From: a virus
Length of the DNA: 64,000 nucleotides
Direction: 5' to 3' (one strand)
IMG/VR virus record: IMGVR_UViG_3300020442_003949
Span: 27,013 to 91,012 of that record
Under the pieces are notes generated by a model. That model searched no databases. It was given only the letters and a program-made list of their open reading frames with translations, and was not told where the DNA came from. The position numbers were made by a program, and so were the translations under genes. Below are positions 52,173 to 64,000 of the stretch, piece after piece. Each line of letters starts with the position of its first letter. Position 1 is the stretch's first letter.

Positions 52173-53183
52173 ATGTTTAAAAAAGCAGCAGTATTTACTG
52201 ATATACATTTTGGATTAAAAGGAAATAGTAAGATACACAACGATGACTGTGAAAACTTTATTGACTGGTTTATCAAAACTGCTCAAGAAAATAAATGCGA
52301 TGCTGGAATTTTTTGCGGAGACTGGCATCACAATCGTAACAGTTTAAATCTCACAACTATGCAGGCTACACTCCGTAGTTTAGAAAAATTAGGTGCAGCA
52401 TTTGACACTTTTTATATTTTTACAGGTAATCACGATTTATATTACAAAGATAAACGTGATGTAAGTTCTACTGACTTTGCCAGACACATCAAAGGTATAG
52501 AATTTGTAAACTCATTTACAGAAATTGACGATGTTGCCCTTGTACCTTGGTTAGTAGGGGATGAATGGAAGCTTATTGAACAGTGTAAATCTAAATACAT
52601 GTTTGGACATTTTGAATTACCGCATTTTTATATGAATGCAATGGTAAAAATGCCTGAGCATGGTGATTTACGACCTAAACATTTTAAAAATCAAGACCTT
52701 GTGTTTAGTGGTCATTTCCATAAGCGACAAAAACAAGGTAAGATACAGTATATTGGCAATGCATTTCCGCATAATTATGCAGATGCCGGCGATGATGAGC
52801 GTGGTATGATGATATTTGATCGTGAAAATAACCTCGCACCCGAATATATCAATTGGTCAGATGCACCTAAATATCGTACTACAACATTAAGTAAGCTACT
52901 AGATCCCCAAGCAAACATAATTAAACCAAATATGTATCTTAGGGTTACACTAGATTTACCAATATCGTATGAGGAAGCACAATTTATCAAAGAAACATAT
53001 ATATCACAATACAATTGTAGAGAAATTGTGCTAATTCCACAAAAACAGATTGAAGAAATATCAACAGAACTAGATATTAGCCAGTTTGAAACAGTAGATG
53101 AAATTGTTTCCAAAGAAATCAATGCTATTGACAGCGAAAACTTCAACAAAAACACACTGTTAGACATTTATAACGAATTATAA
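52173..53183 (+). CDS. gp47: Recombination endonuclease subunit (gp47 / Mre11-SbcD-like)
   Basis: Metallophosphoesterase motifs DIHFG, GDWHH, GNHD, GHFE, SGHFH. Confidence 0.93.
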   Translation: MFKKAAVFTDIHFGLKGNSKIHNDDCENFIDWFIKTAQENKCDAGIFCGDWHHNRNSLNLTTMQATLRSLEKLGAAFDTFYIFTGNHDLYYKDKRDVSSTDFARHIKGIEFVNSFTEIDDVALVPWLVGDEWKLIEQCKSKYMFGHFELPHFYMNAMVKMPEHGDLRPKHFKNQDLVFSGHFHKRQKQGKIQYIGNAFPHNYADAGDDERGMMIFDRENNLAPEYINWSDAPKYRTTTLSKLLDPQANIIKPNMYLRVTLDLPISYEEAQFIKETYISQYNCREIVLIPQKQIEEISTELDISQFETVDEIVSKEINAIDSENFNKNTLLDIYNEL

Positions 53184-54958
53184 TGCCAATTACAATTAAA
53201 GACCTTACAGTTAAAAACTTTATGAGCGTTGGTAATCAAACGCAAGCCATAGATTTTAGCAAAGAACAATTAACACTGGTTTTAGGTGAAAACTTAGATC
53301 AAGGTGGTGACGATACTGGATCTCGTAACGGAACAGGGAAAACAACTATCATAAATGCACTATCATATGCATTATATGGGCAAGCACTTACTAATATCAA
53401 GCGAAATAACTTAATTAACAAGACAAACAGTAAGGGCATGCTGGTTACATTGCATTTTGAGAAGAATAATACTGACTATAGGATAGAAAGAGGTAGATCT
53501 CCTAATGTAATGAAGTTTTATATCAATAATCAAGAGCAAGAAATCCTAGACGAAAGCCAAGGAGACAGTAGGAAGACACAGGAATCTATAAATGAGCTAC
53601 TAGGCATGAGTCATGACATGTTTAAGCATGTGGTTGCACTTAATACCTACACAGAACCGTTCCTTAACATGCGACAGAATGATCAAAGGATGATTATTGA
53701 ACAACTTCTAGGTATCACACTGTTATCTGAAAAGGCAGAAAGACTAAAAGAGCAAGTACGGAGTACAAAAGAAGCTATATCAGAAGAAGAAGCACGTATC
53801 AGAGCTGTTCAAACCAGTAATGAACATATACAAGAAAGTATTGATAGCTTAAAACTAAAACAATCTGCCTGGAAATCACAAAAAGAGAAAAGTATTGATA
53901 AATTACAACGTAGTATAACCGAATTAGAAGAACTTGACATTGAAAATGAACTAAATTCACATACAAAACTTGCAGATTGGGAGGCGCATAACAACGCAAT
54001 CACAGCATTAAACAAAGAACGTGCTACATTAGAAAGTGCTTTATCTCGTGCAGATAAAACCGTTGATAAAGTTAAAAAAGACATTGAGGAATTAGATAGT
54101 GCTATATGTTATGCCTGTAACCAACCATTACATGCTGACAAAAAACAGGAAATGGTAGATAAAAAGTCCAAAGAATTAGAAGATGCTATTACATATCAAA
54201 CAGAAGTTGCTAAAAAATTAGCAGATGTAGAGCAAGGATTAGAAGAAATTGGAGATATTAATGGTAGACCTAACACTTTTTACGATACAGTTAAAGAAGC
54301 ATACGAACATAAAGAAAATGTTGGTCAATTACGCAATACATTAGAACGTAACCTAGCAGAAACGGATCCCTACCAAGAACAAATTGAAGAATTATCACAT
54401 ACTGCACTACAAGACATTGTCTGGGATACTGTAAACACACTTACAGACTTCAAAGAGCATCAAGAATTCTTATTAAAACTGTTGACTAACAAGGATTCGT
54501 TTATTAGAAAAAAAATAATTGATCAAAACCTAGCTTATCTTAACAATAGACTTACATATTATTTAGATAAACTAGGTTTGCCACATCAAGTTACATTCCA
54601 AAACGATCTAGCAGTAGAAATTACCCAACTAGGTCAGGATTTAGACTTTGATAATCTAAGTAGAGGTGAAAGGAACAGACTAATACTTGGTATGAGCTTT
54701 GCATTCCGTGATGTATGGGAGAGCTTATATCAAAATATTAATTTATTATTCATTGACGAACTGATTGACAGTGGAATGGATACTGCAGGAGTAGAAGGCT
54801 CACTTGCTGTAATTAAAAAGATGGGCAGAGAACGAGAAAAAAATGTTTTCCTTATCAGTCATAAGGATGAATTAATTGGAAGAGTTAATCATGTACTAAA
54901 AGTTATTAAAGAAAATGGTTTTACATCTTACAGTAATGATTTAGAGGTGACAGTATGA
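53183..54958 (+). CDS. gp46: Recombination ATPase subunit (gp46 / Rad50-SbcC-like)
   Basis: Walker A NGTGKTT, coiled coil with CYAC zinc hook, LSRGE signature, LFIDE Walker B, ISH. Confidence 0.95.
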   Translation: MPITIKDLTVKNFMSVGNQTQAIDFSKEQLTLVLGENLDQGGDDTGSRNGTGKTTIINALSYALYGQALTNIKRNNLINKTNSKGMLVTLHFEKNNTDYRIERGRSPNVMKFYINNQEQEILDESQGDSRKTQESINELLGMSHDMFKHVVALNTYTEPFLNMRQNDQRMIIEQLLGITLLSEKAERLKEQVRSTKEAISEEEARIRAVQTSNEHIQESIDSLKLKQSAWKSQKEKSIDKLQRSITELEELDIENELNSHTKLADWEAHNNAITALNKERATLESALSRADKTVDKVKKDIEELDSAICYACNQPLHADKKQEMVDKKSKELEDAITYQTEVAKKLADVEQGLEEIGDINGRPNTFYDTVKEAYEHKENVGQLRNTLERNLAETDPYQEQIEELSHTALQDIVWDTVNTLTDFKEHQEFLLKLLTNKDSFIRKKIIDQNLAYLNNRLTYYLDKLGLPHQVTFQNDLAVEITQLGQDLDFDNLSRGERNRLILGMSFAFRDVWESLYQNINLLFIDELIDSGMDTAGVEGSLAVIKKMGREREKNVFLISHKDELIGRVNHVLKVIKENGFTSYSNDLEVTV

Positions 54959-55191
54959 TAGAAGACGATACTCACGACTTGCTGACCAAAGCATACTTAG
55001 AATATTTTATTGAAAATGAAAAGTTTGAACGTAAATTATCTCATAGAACTCACGCTTCAAGCCGGAGATCTTTAAGAAAGATAATTACTTTAGCAAGACA
55101 AAGACAAAAAGAAATCCACGAGAAGTATGCCATCGAAAAGCAAATCAAAAGGCAAAGGGTTCGAGAGAGAAATAGCAAAGCATCTCTCTGA
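54955..55191 (+). CDS. Small basic protein, possibly Hc1 (histone H1-like) family-related
   Basis: ENEKF...SRRSLRKIITLARQRQKEI resembles the Hc1-type helical hairpin; ATGA overlap with gp46. Confidence 0.45.
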   Translation: MIEDDTHDLLTKAYLEYFIENEKFERKLSHRTHASSRRSLRKIITLARQRQKEIHEKYAIEKQIKRQRVRERNSKASL

Positions 55192-55642
55192 AATGTATAA
55201 TAATTCATTTACAAGGGTTCCAGACAGTGGTGCTTTCACTGGTGGTAAGAACAATTACCGACGAGAAACACTCACAGAAGGACAGGTTAGAGCCCATAAA
55301 GGAGATATTATACCTCCTGACCATTGGAAATACTTTAATGCAGAGTGTAAAAACTATGCAGGATTTCCCTTCCATCAATTACTCACTAAAGGCCCCATAC
55401 CACAACTTGAAAACTGGCTACAACAAACACTTGAGGCAGCAGACCAAGGCGATGTAAACATCCTCTTTATGAAATTTGACCGCATAGGCAAATATATCGC
55501 ATACCAATTACCACAAAACTTCAAAACCAACAGGCACTTAGACTACACAGACAAGGCTAACAACACTTGGAGACTTACAGGTTACAATGACTTTTTTGAA
55601 TTAAACAAAGAAGCATTCGAAACTTGTTGTACAGGCGCTTAA
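55127..55642 (+). CDS. Holliday-junction-resolvase-like PD-(D/E)XK nuclease (Hjc type)
   Basis: KGKGFERE...SGA...GDII...AECKNY (E...D...ExK). Confidence 0.75.
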   Translation: MPSKSKSKGKGFEREIAKHLSEMYNNSFTRVPDSGAFTGGKNNYRRETLTEGQVRAHKGDIIPPDHWKYFNAECKNYAGFPFHQLLTKGPIPQLENWLQQTLEAADQGDVNILFMKFDRIGKYIAYQLPQNFKTNRHLDYTDKANNTWRLTGYNDFFELNKEAFETCCTGA

Positions 55643-55649
55643 GGCTATA

Positions 55650-55950
55650 TACGAGACATTGTTTGATTAGGGTTGCCTAATCCATCTTGAGGTGTTGTTT
55701 ATACACAACACCGGATACTGGTGTGTCTCACTCACGATAACCCCTAAAAACCTCTAGCACTAGGAACGAAGCAGAGGATAGTGTAAGTTTAACTTACATG
55801 ATGTCGGTGTAGGTAAGGGAAAGGCAGGAGCCCTTGGGGTCGTACAAAACACCTACTTCATAGTCACGGCAAATGCAACTCACATGAAACATTTTTTAAA
55901 AGACTTGGAACCTTTTACAGGTTCCGTCTGACCAAAACAATCTACATGAA
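55650..55950 (+). ncRNA. Putative large structured non-coding RNA (or structured origin element); family unassigned
   Basis: No credible gene and visibly GC-richer than its flanks. At least nine complementary helices, including a predicted pseudoknot (see findings). Strand inferred from flanking transcription and G-U pairs. Confidence 0.6.
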
Positions 55951-55988
55951 CCATTTATTAATTCTAAATTATTAATGCTAGGAGAAAT

Positions 55989-56031
55989 GTGTTAGAGCGT
56001 AAGCGAAAACACTAATGAGCGTAGCTCATTA
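55989..56031. other. Pair of hairpins with GCG(N)AGC-type mini-loops
   Basis: GTGTT-agaGCGTAAGCgaa-AACAC (55989-56012) and TAATGAGC-GTA-GCTCATTA (56013-56031). Confidence 0.5.
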
Positions 56032-56059
56032 ATACTAAATATATAAAAGTGAGTTAAAC

Positions 56060-56956
56060 ATGCATGTATATGAGATAATAGAAGCGAATGTAGACGGTAA
56101 TACTATTAATTTGCCTAAAGGATCACAGATAGTACAAAAACCTACTTCTGAATTACCTAAAGGATCACAGATAGTACAAAAAACTGATAAACAATCTTTT
56201 AATAAAACCACACCTACTCCTATTCCTTCTGACACACCTAAACCATCTGATAATCCTGCAAATACTCCTGGTCCATTTAAGAAAGCTTTTAAAGCAACAT
56301 GGGGAGTAATGAAGAGGATCTTTACGTTTAAGTTCCAATTAATACTTAATAGTATTCTAGAAGCTGACAATTTACATAAAATTTCGAAAGAATATGCTAT
56401 GATTATGGAATTAAACAATTGTTCAGGAAAAGTTGTACCAAATCATACCGCAGAATGGCAAGGTAAAGAATATTCTAGTTTGGAACTGGTCAAGCGATTA
56501 AATCATCGTGTATACAAAATGAAAAAAGACGTAGCCCAAGGACTTGGTAGGATATTACTTGCTTCAGTTGGTGCTGATCTAATAACTCAATACAAAGACG
56601 ATCTATCTAAGGTACCGCACATAGGTAAAATTTTTAAAAGGATCCCTTTTAAAGCAACAGCAGGCGGGCAAGCTGCCAGACAAATAATGGATGAGATTGT
56701 AGAAGCTACTAACAGCGAACATATGTTTTATGCGATTGGAGATTATATGGTAGGCGATTATCTTGGTCACCTTACCTTAGAGCTATACAGTCAATGTGAT
56801 AAAACAAAAAATGAAGCTCTTACTTTCAGTGGCGTAAAATTAGATATCGGCAGTATAGGTCCAAAATCTTTAAAGCAGGACACAAGAAAACTAAAAAAGA
56901 TATACGACGAAATACTAGCTAACAGCCCAATGATAGCGGATTTGATGTCTAAATAA
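56060..56956 (+). CDS. Hypothetical protein with Pro/Thr-rich N-terminal region
   Basis: 298-aa ORF after a TAAATA motif; begins M.V.EII.E. Confidence 0.75.
   Translation: MHVYEIIEANVDGNTINLPKGSQIVQKPTSELPKGSQIVQKTDKQSFNKTTPTPIPSDTPKPSDNPANTPGPFKKAFKATWGVMKRIFTFKFQLILNSILEADNLHKISKEYAMIMELNNCSGKVVPNHTAEWQGKEYSSLELVKRLNHRVYKMKKDVAQGLGRILLASVGADLITQYKDDLSKVPHIGKIFKRIPFKATAGGQAARQIMDEIVEATNSEHMFYAIGDYMVGDYLGHLTLELYSQCDKTKNEALTFSGVKLDIGSIGPKSLKQDTRKLKKIYDEILANSPMIADLMSK
56114..56182 (+). repeat. 42-nt-period duplication (LPKGSQIVQK x2)
   Basis: cctaaaggatcacagatagtacaaaaa at 56114 and 56156. Confidence 0.9.
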
Positions 56957-63595: not shown

Positions 63596-63692
63596 AATGA
63601 ACGTTTTTTCACCTTTTTAAGCTGGTTTTTTACATTTTAAGTAAATAATATTATGACAGCCTTACCATTTGGTAAATTTATAGGAGTTAATG

Positions 63693-64000
63693 ATGGCAAA
63701 AAAGAATGTTAGAAAAAAAGTTAACGAAAATACAAATAACGTTAAAGTTGACAAATTTCAACAAATGTTAGAATATTTAGTTAATGAAGAACAAGCAAAA
63801 GCAGAAGCAATCTTCCATGAAATAGTGGTAGAGAAATCAAGACAAATTTACGAAAACTTACTTGAAGACGAATTAAATGACGAAGAAGTTGATGAATCAG
63901 ATGACGAAGAAGTTGATGAATCAGATGACGAAGAAGTTGATGAATCAGATGACGAAGAAGTTGATGAATCAGATGACGAAGAAGTTGATGAATCAGATGA
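63693..64000 (+). CDS. Acidic prohead core/scaffold-like protein (5' part, runs off the window)
   Basis: AGGAG RBS at 63682; MAKKNVRKK...KFQQMLEYLVNEEQAKAEAIFHEIVVEKSRQIYENLLEDE, then acidic repeats; position downstream of portal. Confidence 0.65.
   Translation, partial: MAKKNVRKKVNENTNNVKVDKFQQMLEYLVNEEQAKAEAIFHEIVVEKSRQIYENLLEDELNDEEVDESDDEEVDESDDEEVDESDDEEVDESDDEEVDESD
63877..64000 (+). repeat. Perfect 24-nt tandem repeat (DDEEVDES)n, at least 5 copies
   Basis: atgacgaagaagttgatgaatcag x5 plus a partial copy at the window end. Confidence 0.95.

Follow-up and report, generated by a model that had tools for sequence, protein, structure and literature searches.

GOLLD (RF01998) and ROOL (RF03087) are long, multi-domain, pseudoknotted RNAs of phages and mobile islands, and their function is unknown. 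To our knowledge, neither has direct-repeat boxes that co-vary. Matching short direct repeats are a feature of other systems, namely DR1/DR2 of hepadnaviruses, the template repeats of DRT2, and the target repeats of P4 CI and P1 c4. Such repeats stay identical because a single strand, or a single antisense partner, pairs with both copies. A further described RNA is relevant to the locus analysed here: Polynucleobacter-1 (RF01718), an orphan candidate RNA reported from Burkholderiales and from fresh water and estuaries (Weinberg et al. 2010, PMC2864571).

The window analysed here is a stretch of 64,000 nt, to whose numbering and + strand all positions refer unless a locus is named. It comes from a 91-kb IMG/VR fragment that CheckV estimates at 23% of the genome. 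The gene order of interest starts with gp47 (52173-53183) and gp46 (53183-54958), the latter having its nearest cultured relatives (~48% amino-acid identity) in giant phages, including PA5oct, Phosso and Atu_ph07. A 78-aa ORF follows, then the final gene of the gp47-gp46-nuclease block, which encodes a resolvase-like PD-(D/E)XK nuclease of 171 aa (55127-55642, + strand; PF24608, Pfam match at 1.6e-27). After a gap of 417 nt (55643-56059) comes an unannotated gene of 298 aa, with its ATG at 56060. Nowhere else inside the window is there an ORF-free stretch as long as this gap, as a preliminary description of the DNA had noticed; ORF-free stretches also occur at the window edges (1-909 and 63596-64000). 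The ORF between gp46 and the nuclease (54955-55191) is basic, overlaps the start of the nuclease gene by 65 nt, and has no family match above threshold.

No described RNA family accounts for the gap. No Rfam family reaches threshold over the window, and a relaxed scan of the gap returned noise. The covariance models of ribozymes, introns, RNase P, tmRNA, 6S, T-box, c4, CI, GOLLD and ROOL all lack a match to the element, and ARAGORN finds no tRNA or tmRNA in it. The earlier failure to liken it to a tRNA, a tmRNA, RNase P or an intron is thus borne out by these models. The RNA shares with GOLLD and ROOL the general character described above but is shorter than either.

The relation to Polynucleobacter-1 is of another kind. 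The RF01718 model does not match the window at its gathering score of 37 bits, nor at E-values up to 10, and does not match 13 other type-A and type-B relatives at E-values up to 1. It does match four loci of a sister lineage (L064, L071, L072 and L088, with 59-115 bits), directly after the nuclease, and scores above its cut-off in three of 151 sampled Burkholderiales genomes. In the sister phages and in Burkholderiales, the match starts right after the upstream gene and occupies the place of the 5' modules of the window RNA, with homologous twin boxes and a module 3 behind it (seen in L064, G056 and G009). However, the 141 positions of the model cover only the 5' third of the sister RNAs, and the twin boxes and module 3 are in no catalogued model. 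These matches, together with the same modules downstream, indicate that what RF01718 catalogues is the 5' third of a sister version of this RNA, and that the window RNA is itself no member of RF01718 as modelled.

The RNA, its modules and its ends

The stretch 55643-56033 is almost certainly a structured, pseudoknotted, non-coding RNA of ~390 nt, made of three modules and belonging to what we call the twin-box family. This degree of confidence applies to the reality of the RNA and to its family membership; the mechanism proposed below is a separate claim and is put forward much more cautiously. With the nuclease as bait, viral and metagenome contigs yielded 169 loci; in 86 of these, an iterated nhmmer profile of the gap detected a homologue immediately behind the nuclease gene and in the same orientation. 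The nhmmer searches identified the element in 179 loci overall, one per locus each time. It is single-copy in every genome checked, including a complete one of 381 kb, and its sequence is kept even where the adjoining nuclease shares only ~50% protein identity. The window RNA has profile homology to the family and carries its traits: boxes preceded by ACTC and ATCT, a pseudoknot domain with GGAACGA, and a GAGCGNNAGCGAA loop with a terminal hairpin.

The first conserved base lies 1 nt past the stop codon of the nuclease, and homology among close relatives, which differ in their downstream gene, stops at 56033. The preliminary description had delimited an element of about 300 nt, from 55643 to 55960. 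Its start stands, but the RNA continues for ~75 nt beyond the proposed end, up to a third module. The remaining nucleotides of the gap (56034-56059) form the leader of the next gene, which in relatives is the site of a late-promoter box.

Module 1 (55643-55732) begins with a conserved 5' leader, GGCTATATAC, which is followed by nested helices. Its consensus includes 17 pairs, 14 of them with double (compensatory) changes. These changes affect two hairpins (55665-71/55676-82 and 55691-98/55705-12) and a helix CATC/GGTG (55683-86/55720-23) that had been overlooked before. The helix GAGACAT/GTGTCTC that encloses these helices (55653-58/55724-29) is absent from the 17-pair consensus and was left uncounted; its inner pairs are weakened in close relatives.

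Module 2 (55733-55950) gathers a pseudoknot domain (module 2a, 55733-55861), both boxes, and the hairpin between them. The pseudoknot results from a long-range helix (55734-37 and 55741-44 with 55836-43) that crosses the helix GTAGGT/ACCTAC (55809-14/55851-56). The domain, where compensatory changes are found, further includes a helix CCTCT..GC/GC..AGAGG (55751-58/55771-77) whose loop carries the invariant GGAACGA, a variable hairpin GTGTAAGT/ACTTACAT (55781-88/55792-99), and a hairpin AAGGG/CCCTT (55815-19/55831-35). Counted over 20 diverse sequences, the nested helices of the module together with the inner pseudoknot pairs have 95.2% of their cells paired; column shuffles reach 80.1%, and slid partners 28-53%. 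Changes on both sides were observed in 24 of the 34 pairs. The strand ACGA..CCCC (55734-44) pairs with GGGGTCGT (55836-43) in all 20 sequences even if the letters differ, and the mean energy of this long-range helix is -11.9 kcal/mol for cognate strands, -7.4 for non-cognate ones, and -5.5 for shuffled ones. The formation of the helix by different letters in every sequence and the gap in energy between cognate and other strands show that the pseudoknot, already drawn in the preliminary description, is real.

The inter-box hairpin, GGAACCT/AGGTTCC (55907-13/55919-25, in an element spanning 55902-55932), has 8 pairs and 97.5% of its cells are paired. Its compensatory forms include GGAACCG/CGGTTCC and TTCACCC/GGGTGAA. 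An extension by GAC/GTC is possible, as judged by eye and without counts, and a conserved GTCTGAC (55926-32) lies on the 3' side. A helix GTCA/TGAC (55863-66/55929-32) had been thought to enclose this hairpin, but only 50.6% of its cells are paired, which is the level of the shuffles. Every other helix proposed at the outset is supported by compensatory changes in distant relatives, save the uncounted GAGACAT/GTGTCTC, and all the sequence stretches then named lie where they had been placed.

Box 2 is followed by an AT-rich spacer (55951-55986) that is variable even among relatives 95-99% identical elsewhere. The RNA then ends with module 3 (55987-56033), which is conserved in relatives. In this module, a helix GTGTT/AACAC (55989-93/56008-12) encloses the conserved loop GAGCGNNAGCGAA and precedes a terminal hairpin with a GTA loop (56013-20/56024-31), for which 96.7% of the cells are paired and seven of the eight pairs have double changes. 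The covariation anticipated among homologues is therefore present in all three modules and in the pseudoknot. Mutual information also pointed to a loop-loop contact (columns 157 and 267 of alignment A3), which we judged to be phylogenetic noise.

Folding of the lone sequence is better than that of dinucleotide shuffles, as had been expected, and this on both strands, the energy being more unusual on the - strand (z -4.6) than on the + strand (z -2.8). The composition of the pairs is informative about the strand. G-U pairs are frequent (about 35 cells counted in the module-2 alignment, for about 5 cells with A-C), and at two positions of module 1 no other pair is as common as G-U, a pattern that fits the + strand only. 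The excess of G-U pairs over A-C mismatches argues for an RNA of the + strand, and against either a minus-strand RNA or a pure DNA signal. Hence, the comparison of homologues demonstrates a real, strand-specific RNA of a large and mostly uncatalogued family, as far as sequence evidence can do so. The initial suggestion of a large, unassigned, pseudoknotted phage RNA encoded on the + strand agrees with these data.

Parts of the stretch are present in fourteen runs recorded as RNA, the element being found in metatranscriptomes of marsh and estuary, and metatranscriptome contigs from four studies cover the nuclease gene and the element and bridge both; DNA carry-over is possible in such libraries, so that these contigs prove neither transcription nor its ends or strand. 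In one RNA run, the depth over the element is 2-3.5x that over the nuclease gene. The contigs from RNA libraries include no skipped, spliced or rearranged joints. Since the element starts right after the stop codon of the nuclease and the two are bridged by contigs from RNA libraries, their co-transcription is plausible.

The twin boxes and their possible partner

The inter-box hairpin is flanked by two boxes on the + strand, each made of a constant tetranucleotide and a variable heptanucleotide. Box 1 is ACTC followed by ACATGAA (55878-88, with the 7-nt box at 55882-88), and box 2, placed 62 nt after box 1, is ATCT followed by ACATGAA (55940-50, with the 7-nt box at 55944-50). The preliminary description had listed three occurrences of ACATGA. 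Two of them, at 55882 and 55944, correspond to the conserved twin boxes, whereas that at 55796 is simply one strand of the variable hairpin.

The boxes were placed using the profile alignment, and not their mutual identity. In all of the 36 non-redundant RNAs, box 1 and box 2 have the same first six letters, and yet 12 different words are found at these sites. On a tree built without the box columns, the boxes changed at least 17 times. This can be seen even between the sister loci L096 and L097 (branches of 0.04), in which both boxes differ, and differ alike. The identity is confined to the boxes, because the positions that flank them agree only 20-60% of the time. Across the family, the boxes have 6-7 nt, are 49-66 nt apart, and always flank one conserved hairpin. 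In distant lineages with only module 1 in common, the equivalent place is taken by twin boxes whose sequence is unrelated (e.g., GGGAAAT or GAAAAG). There are no forms with a single box among the 164 elements that cover the region. Partition-function folding gives the boxes unpaired probabilities of 0.48 and 0.43, for 0.41 in the RNA overall, and so does not predict a greater exposure of the boxes, which counts against their role as pairing sites. This covariation is direct, not complementary, and implies that the two sites must match each other. The conservation of identity through at least 17 changes is an unusually clean evolutionary signal, and it suggests that a step of sequence matching is central to the function of the RNA.

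Our preferred reading, which we regard as possible although falling somewhat short of an even chance, is that one short nucleic-acid sequence is the pairing partner of both boxes, which would thereby serve as a lineage-specific address. The RNA would be made as the tail of the transcript of the recombination operon, or from its own start just past the stop codon, and would end at the hairpin of module 3. Its working part would be the identical 7-nt boxes, each presented behind a helix and a constant ACTC or ATCT. The identity of the boxes would be maintained by the need for each to pair with one and the same short sequence, be it on two copies of one molecule or in two alternative registers on it. 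This partner could be an RNA or DNA acting in trans, or the template DNA of the RNA itself, in crossed register. The fast and lineage-specific turnover of the boxes would make them a specificity tag, while the roles of scaffold and stabiliser would fall to the folded 5' domain and module 3. A contact of 7 bp alone is weak, and this counts against a base-pairing mechanism. Identifying this partner could bring to light a new type of control over phage replication, of gene regulation, or of conflict between phages and islands.

The known systems with direct repeats resemble the boxes only in part. The twin boxes share with DR1/DR2 and with the repeats of DRT2 the presence of matching direct repeats, but the reverse transcriptase of a template-jump model was not found, even in the complete genome. 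The target repeats of P4 CI and P1 c4 have an antisense partner, for which we found no counterpart near the RNA, and the Rfam models of c4 and CI are without match. More generally, the reverse complement of the box is absent within 2-3 kb of the RNA, no column of the alignment co-varies with the box by Watson-Crick rules, and there is no anti-box near the starts of homologous genes. The box is not repeated in the window as a motif or promoter, and neither box nor anti-box is enriched genome-wide in six genomes. A search for homology in the flanks of box and anti-box sites in six genomes gave no in-register match, but its sensitivity is low, given that the boxes themselves were not recovered across genomes either. 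The complete 381-kb genome (G001) lacks same-direction intergenic anti-boxes and twin anti-boxes; on the opposite strand, three complement sites are intergenic, of which one lies within a tRNA stem. Two genomes have a third box where the downstream gene starts, but such boxes are not enriched (25% vs 20% in controls).

Two analogies with known RNAs were discarded. A reading of tRNAs in the manner of a T-box is at odds with the lack of a 7-nt match to the box among the anticodon loops listed for G001: none of these loops complements the whole box, the Met tRNAs reaching four of the seven positions, and the boxes of distant lineages follow no codon logic. A type III toxin-antitoxin system similar to ToxI was rejected on the grounds that only the 7-nt box is repeated, its flanks being as divergent as stated above, and that the neighbours scanned (the nuclease, gp46, a baseplate protein, and two proteins without clear family) include no known toxin.

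The most economical sub-case of the base-pairing reading, a candidate at this stage, is an R-loop or primer formed in crossed register on the RNA's own DNA. The RNA would stay on its template, or return to it, with the RNA of box 1 pairing with the template at box 2 and vice versa, and the hairpin looped out. The crossed pairing would set the register of the R-loop, and the 3' end would prime replication through the AT-rich spacer. Such a role as origin or primer RNA would explain the lack of a separate partner and would require two coordinated mutations per box change, not three. It is also consistent with the variable AT-rich spacer 3' of box 2, with a locus beside recombination and replication genes, and with the presence of the same RNA in integrase-bearing bacterial islands, which could borrow the replicator. 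Furthermore, in five related genomes the cumulative GC skew reaches a global or local minimum at a distance of 4-8 kb from the RNA. However, this minimum is several kb off and coincides with a reversal of gene direction, and the five genomes, having a common gene order, count as one observation, so that it is weak evidence for an origin. The weakness of a 7-bp RNA-DNA contact and the elaborate pseudoknot domain, which is left unexplained, also weigh against this role, which we consider unlikely. Individual positions of the cumulative minimum are near 78 kb in G000 (about 51 kb in the window) and near 204 kb in G001.

A bolder version, which seems to us decidedly improbable, is that of a self-specifying replicator or primer RNA that would re-anneal in crossed register on its own gene and thereby start DNA replication, with the rapidly changing box as a private address. 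Giant phages would use this RNA, and integrative bacterial islands would copy it. If true, these islands would use the copied RNA to ride on giant phages, or to interfere with them.

Alternatively, the boxes could be identical cleavage sites of an RNA-guided or sequence-specific RNase, leading to the release of a hairpin RNA of ~50-65 nt. The invariable location of the boxes around one conserved hairpin, their spacing of 49-66 nt and the constant tetranucleotide ahead of each are what one would expect of such processing, and some contigs of RNA libraries begin or end near the borders of modules or boxes (e.g., 55729-55879 and 55713-55954). Yet, contig ends are not RNA ends, and the RNA contigs cross both boxes unbroken and without a joint. 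For a protein nuclease, at least 17 shifts in specificity would be required, and no guide complementary to the box was found. This makes processing quite unlikely in our view.

Genomic neighbourhoods of the RNA

The phage RNAs lie at the end of the block of gp47, gp46 and a small nuclease, ahead of a late promoter. A T4-type late-promoter box, TATAAATA, matched at seven or more of its eight positions, is found within 60 nt after module 3 in 61 of 115 distinct relatives, compared with 14 of 224 control stretches; our own reading of the window gives a match of 6/8. The RNA could thus be a cis-acting 3'-UTR at the end of the operon, which would stabilise or terminate the early/middle recombination transcript and insulate it from the late promoter. 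Its start 1 nt past a stop codon, its end at a hairpin just ahead of the late-promoter box, and its constant position behind the recombination block fit this explanation. Nevertheless, a pseudoknotted RNA of ~390 nt whose twin boxes co-vary goes far beyond what this role calls for, no U-tract accompanies the terminal hairpin, and the bacterial copies are in another context, divergent from a DUF6641 gene. We thus give this explanation a low probability.

We scanned viral contigs without the nuclease bait, using as a motif the stretch that starts with the 3' arm of the hairpin between the boxes and ends with ATCT. Among the 120 stretches retrieved, 98 are true members according to both the profile and the twin boxes. 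The gene upstream of these 98 encodes an unrelated GIY-YIG protein of ~145 aa (PF19835) in 77 cases and a PD-(D/E)XK nuclease of PF24608 in four. A nuclease is therefore directly upstream, on the same strand, in 81 of the 98 loci, and 11 of the other 17 have less than 300 nt of upstream sequence. The GIY-YIG gene is catalytic-only, is encoded on the strand of the RNA, and is usually located behind gp47 and gp46 (examples are L213:1973-2413 and L214:926-1375, with 75 further loci). The slot between gp46 and the RNA appears as a case of non-orthologous displacement, in which it is occupied either by GIY-YIG PF19835 or by PD-(D/E)XK PF24608, always on the strand of the RNA. Homologues of the GIY-YIG protein in the cultured phages Melnitz, phiM12, S-SRM01 and P-HM1 are in other contexts, without a comparable gap behind them.

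The bacterial copies have different neighbours. Two of the Burkholderiales loci were read and have the full architecture, including module 3 and ACTC/ATCT boxes with the sequences AGCGAAA and GGCGAAA, but the upstream ORFs called in them are not nucleases. In both loci (L455:8873-9340 and L452:1466-1966), the RNA is divergent from a gene of DUF6641 (PF20346, phrog_31551), a family that is absent from the phage genomes searched. When we compared the proteins flanking bacterial and phage copies, they were unrelated. In G056 (L455), a tyrosine recombinase of 212 aa (L455:6730-7368) is encoded two genes downstream of the RNA. Upstream of the RNA, the same island has a Zorya-like defence operon (L455:9849-17947), with a 493-aa protein, MotB_plug/OmpA, EH_Signature and SNF2+Mrr_cat. 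These copies are in small chromosomes (1.7-1.9 Mb) and may provide an experimental handle that uncultured phages lack.

The architecture of the RNA is thus kept with either nuclease upstream, or with none, showing that the RNA is an autonomous module and not a nuclease accessory. It had been suggested from the window alone that the RNA is a partner or guide of the nuclease at 55127-55642, and the counts above do not support this: a specific guide role for that protein is unlikely. It is true that a small nuclease gene of the same orientation almost always immediately precedes the phage RNA, and the occupation of the slot by two unrelated folds could mean that 'a nuclease' is wanted there. However, the obligate linkage to one nuclease family that characterizes guide RNAs fails here, and a single conserved scaffold is unlikely to fit folds as unrelated as PF24608 and PF19835. 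Cultured phages carry the GIY-YIG gene elsewhere, and the turnover of the boxes tracks no nearby target. All considered, the chances that the RNA is the guide or partner of the adjacent PD-(D/E)XK nuclease are very slim.

The overlap regions of tyrosine recombinases are sequences of 6-8 bp that are free to vary and yet must match between two sites. The resemblance of the boxes to such regions, and the tyrosine recombinase gene close to the RNA in one bacterial island, suggest that the boxes might act at the level of DNA, as direct-repeat sites for protein binding (iterons) or as recombination sites akin to heterospecific lox/FRT spacers, but this is highly improbable given that the compensatory evolution is strand-specific and G-U-tolerant, as expected from selection on RNA, that the boxes lack flanking inverted arms, and that recombination would excise just ~60 bp and leave single-box elements, of which there are none (0 of 164).

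The twin-box family is very widespread in uncultured aquatic phages related to T4, most of them giant, and is also present in some bacterial islands. An RNA common to hundreds of such phages and catalogued only as a fragment from a sister lineage reveals, by the contrast between its spread and its absence from RNA catalogues, a substantial blind spot in phage biology. The counts of displacement between GIY-YIG and PD-(D/E)XK, the late-promoter boundary and the negative searches for a partner are new to this analysis. Searches with blastn using RNAs of three lineages revealed no copy in cultured phages. A pattern scan of prokaryote genomes produced at least 120 chance matches, with no family member among the matches listed.

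A few loci depart from the typical arrangement. In L042, L044, L047 and L049, module 3 alone was detected, ~1.1 kb (L047 and L049) or 2.9 kb (L042 and L044) past the nuclease; this lineage may have a far longer RNA, or one that inserted genes interrupt. Another clade, without profile match (L046, L048, L056, L154, L159 and L160), has CTC+TTTCAT and TCT+TTTCAT 62 nt apart on the opposite strand (minus strand of the oriented loci, at about 3474 or 2474). This pair may be due to chance or may belong to a diverged element. Finally, the complete 381-kb relative G001 (L170-L189) encodes about 40 tRNA genes detected by ARAGORN (e.g., L170:11837-11910 and L170:17688-17762), including one with a 4-base anticodon (tatg) and one that reads TAG (anticodon cta).
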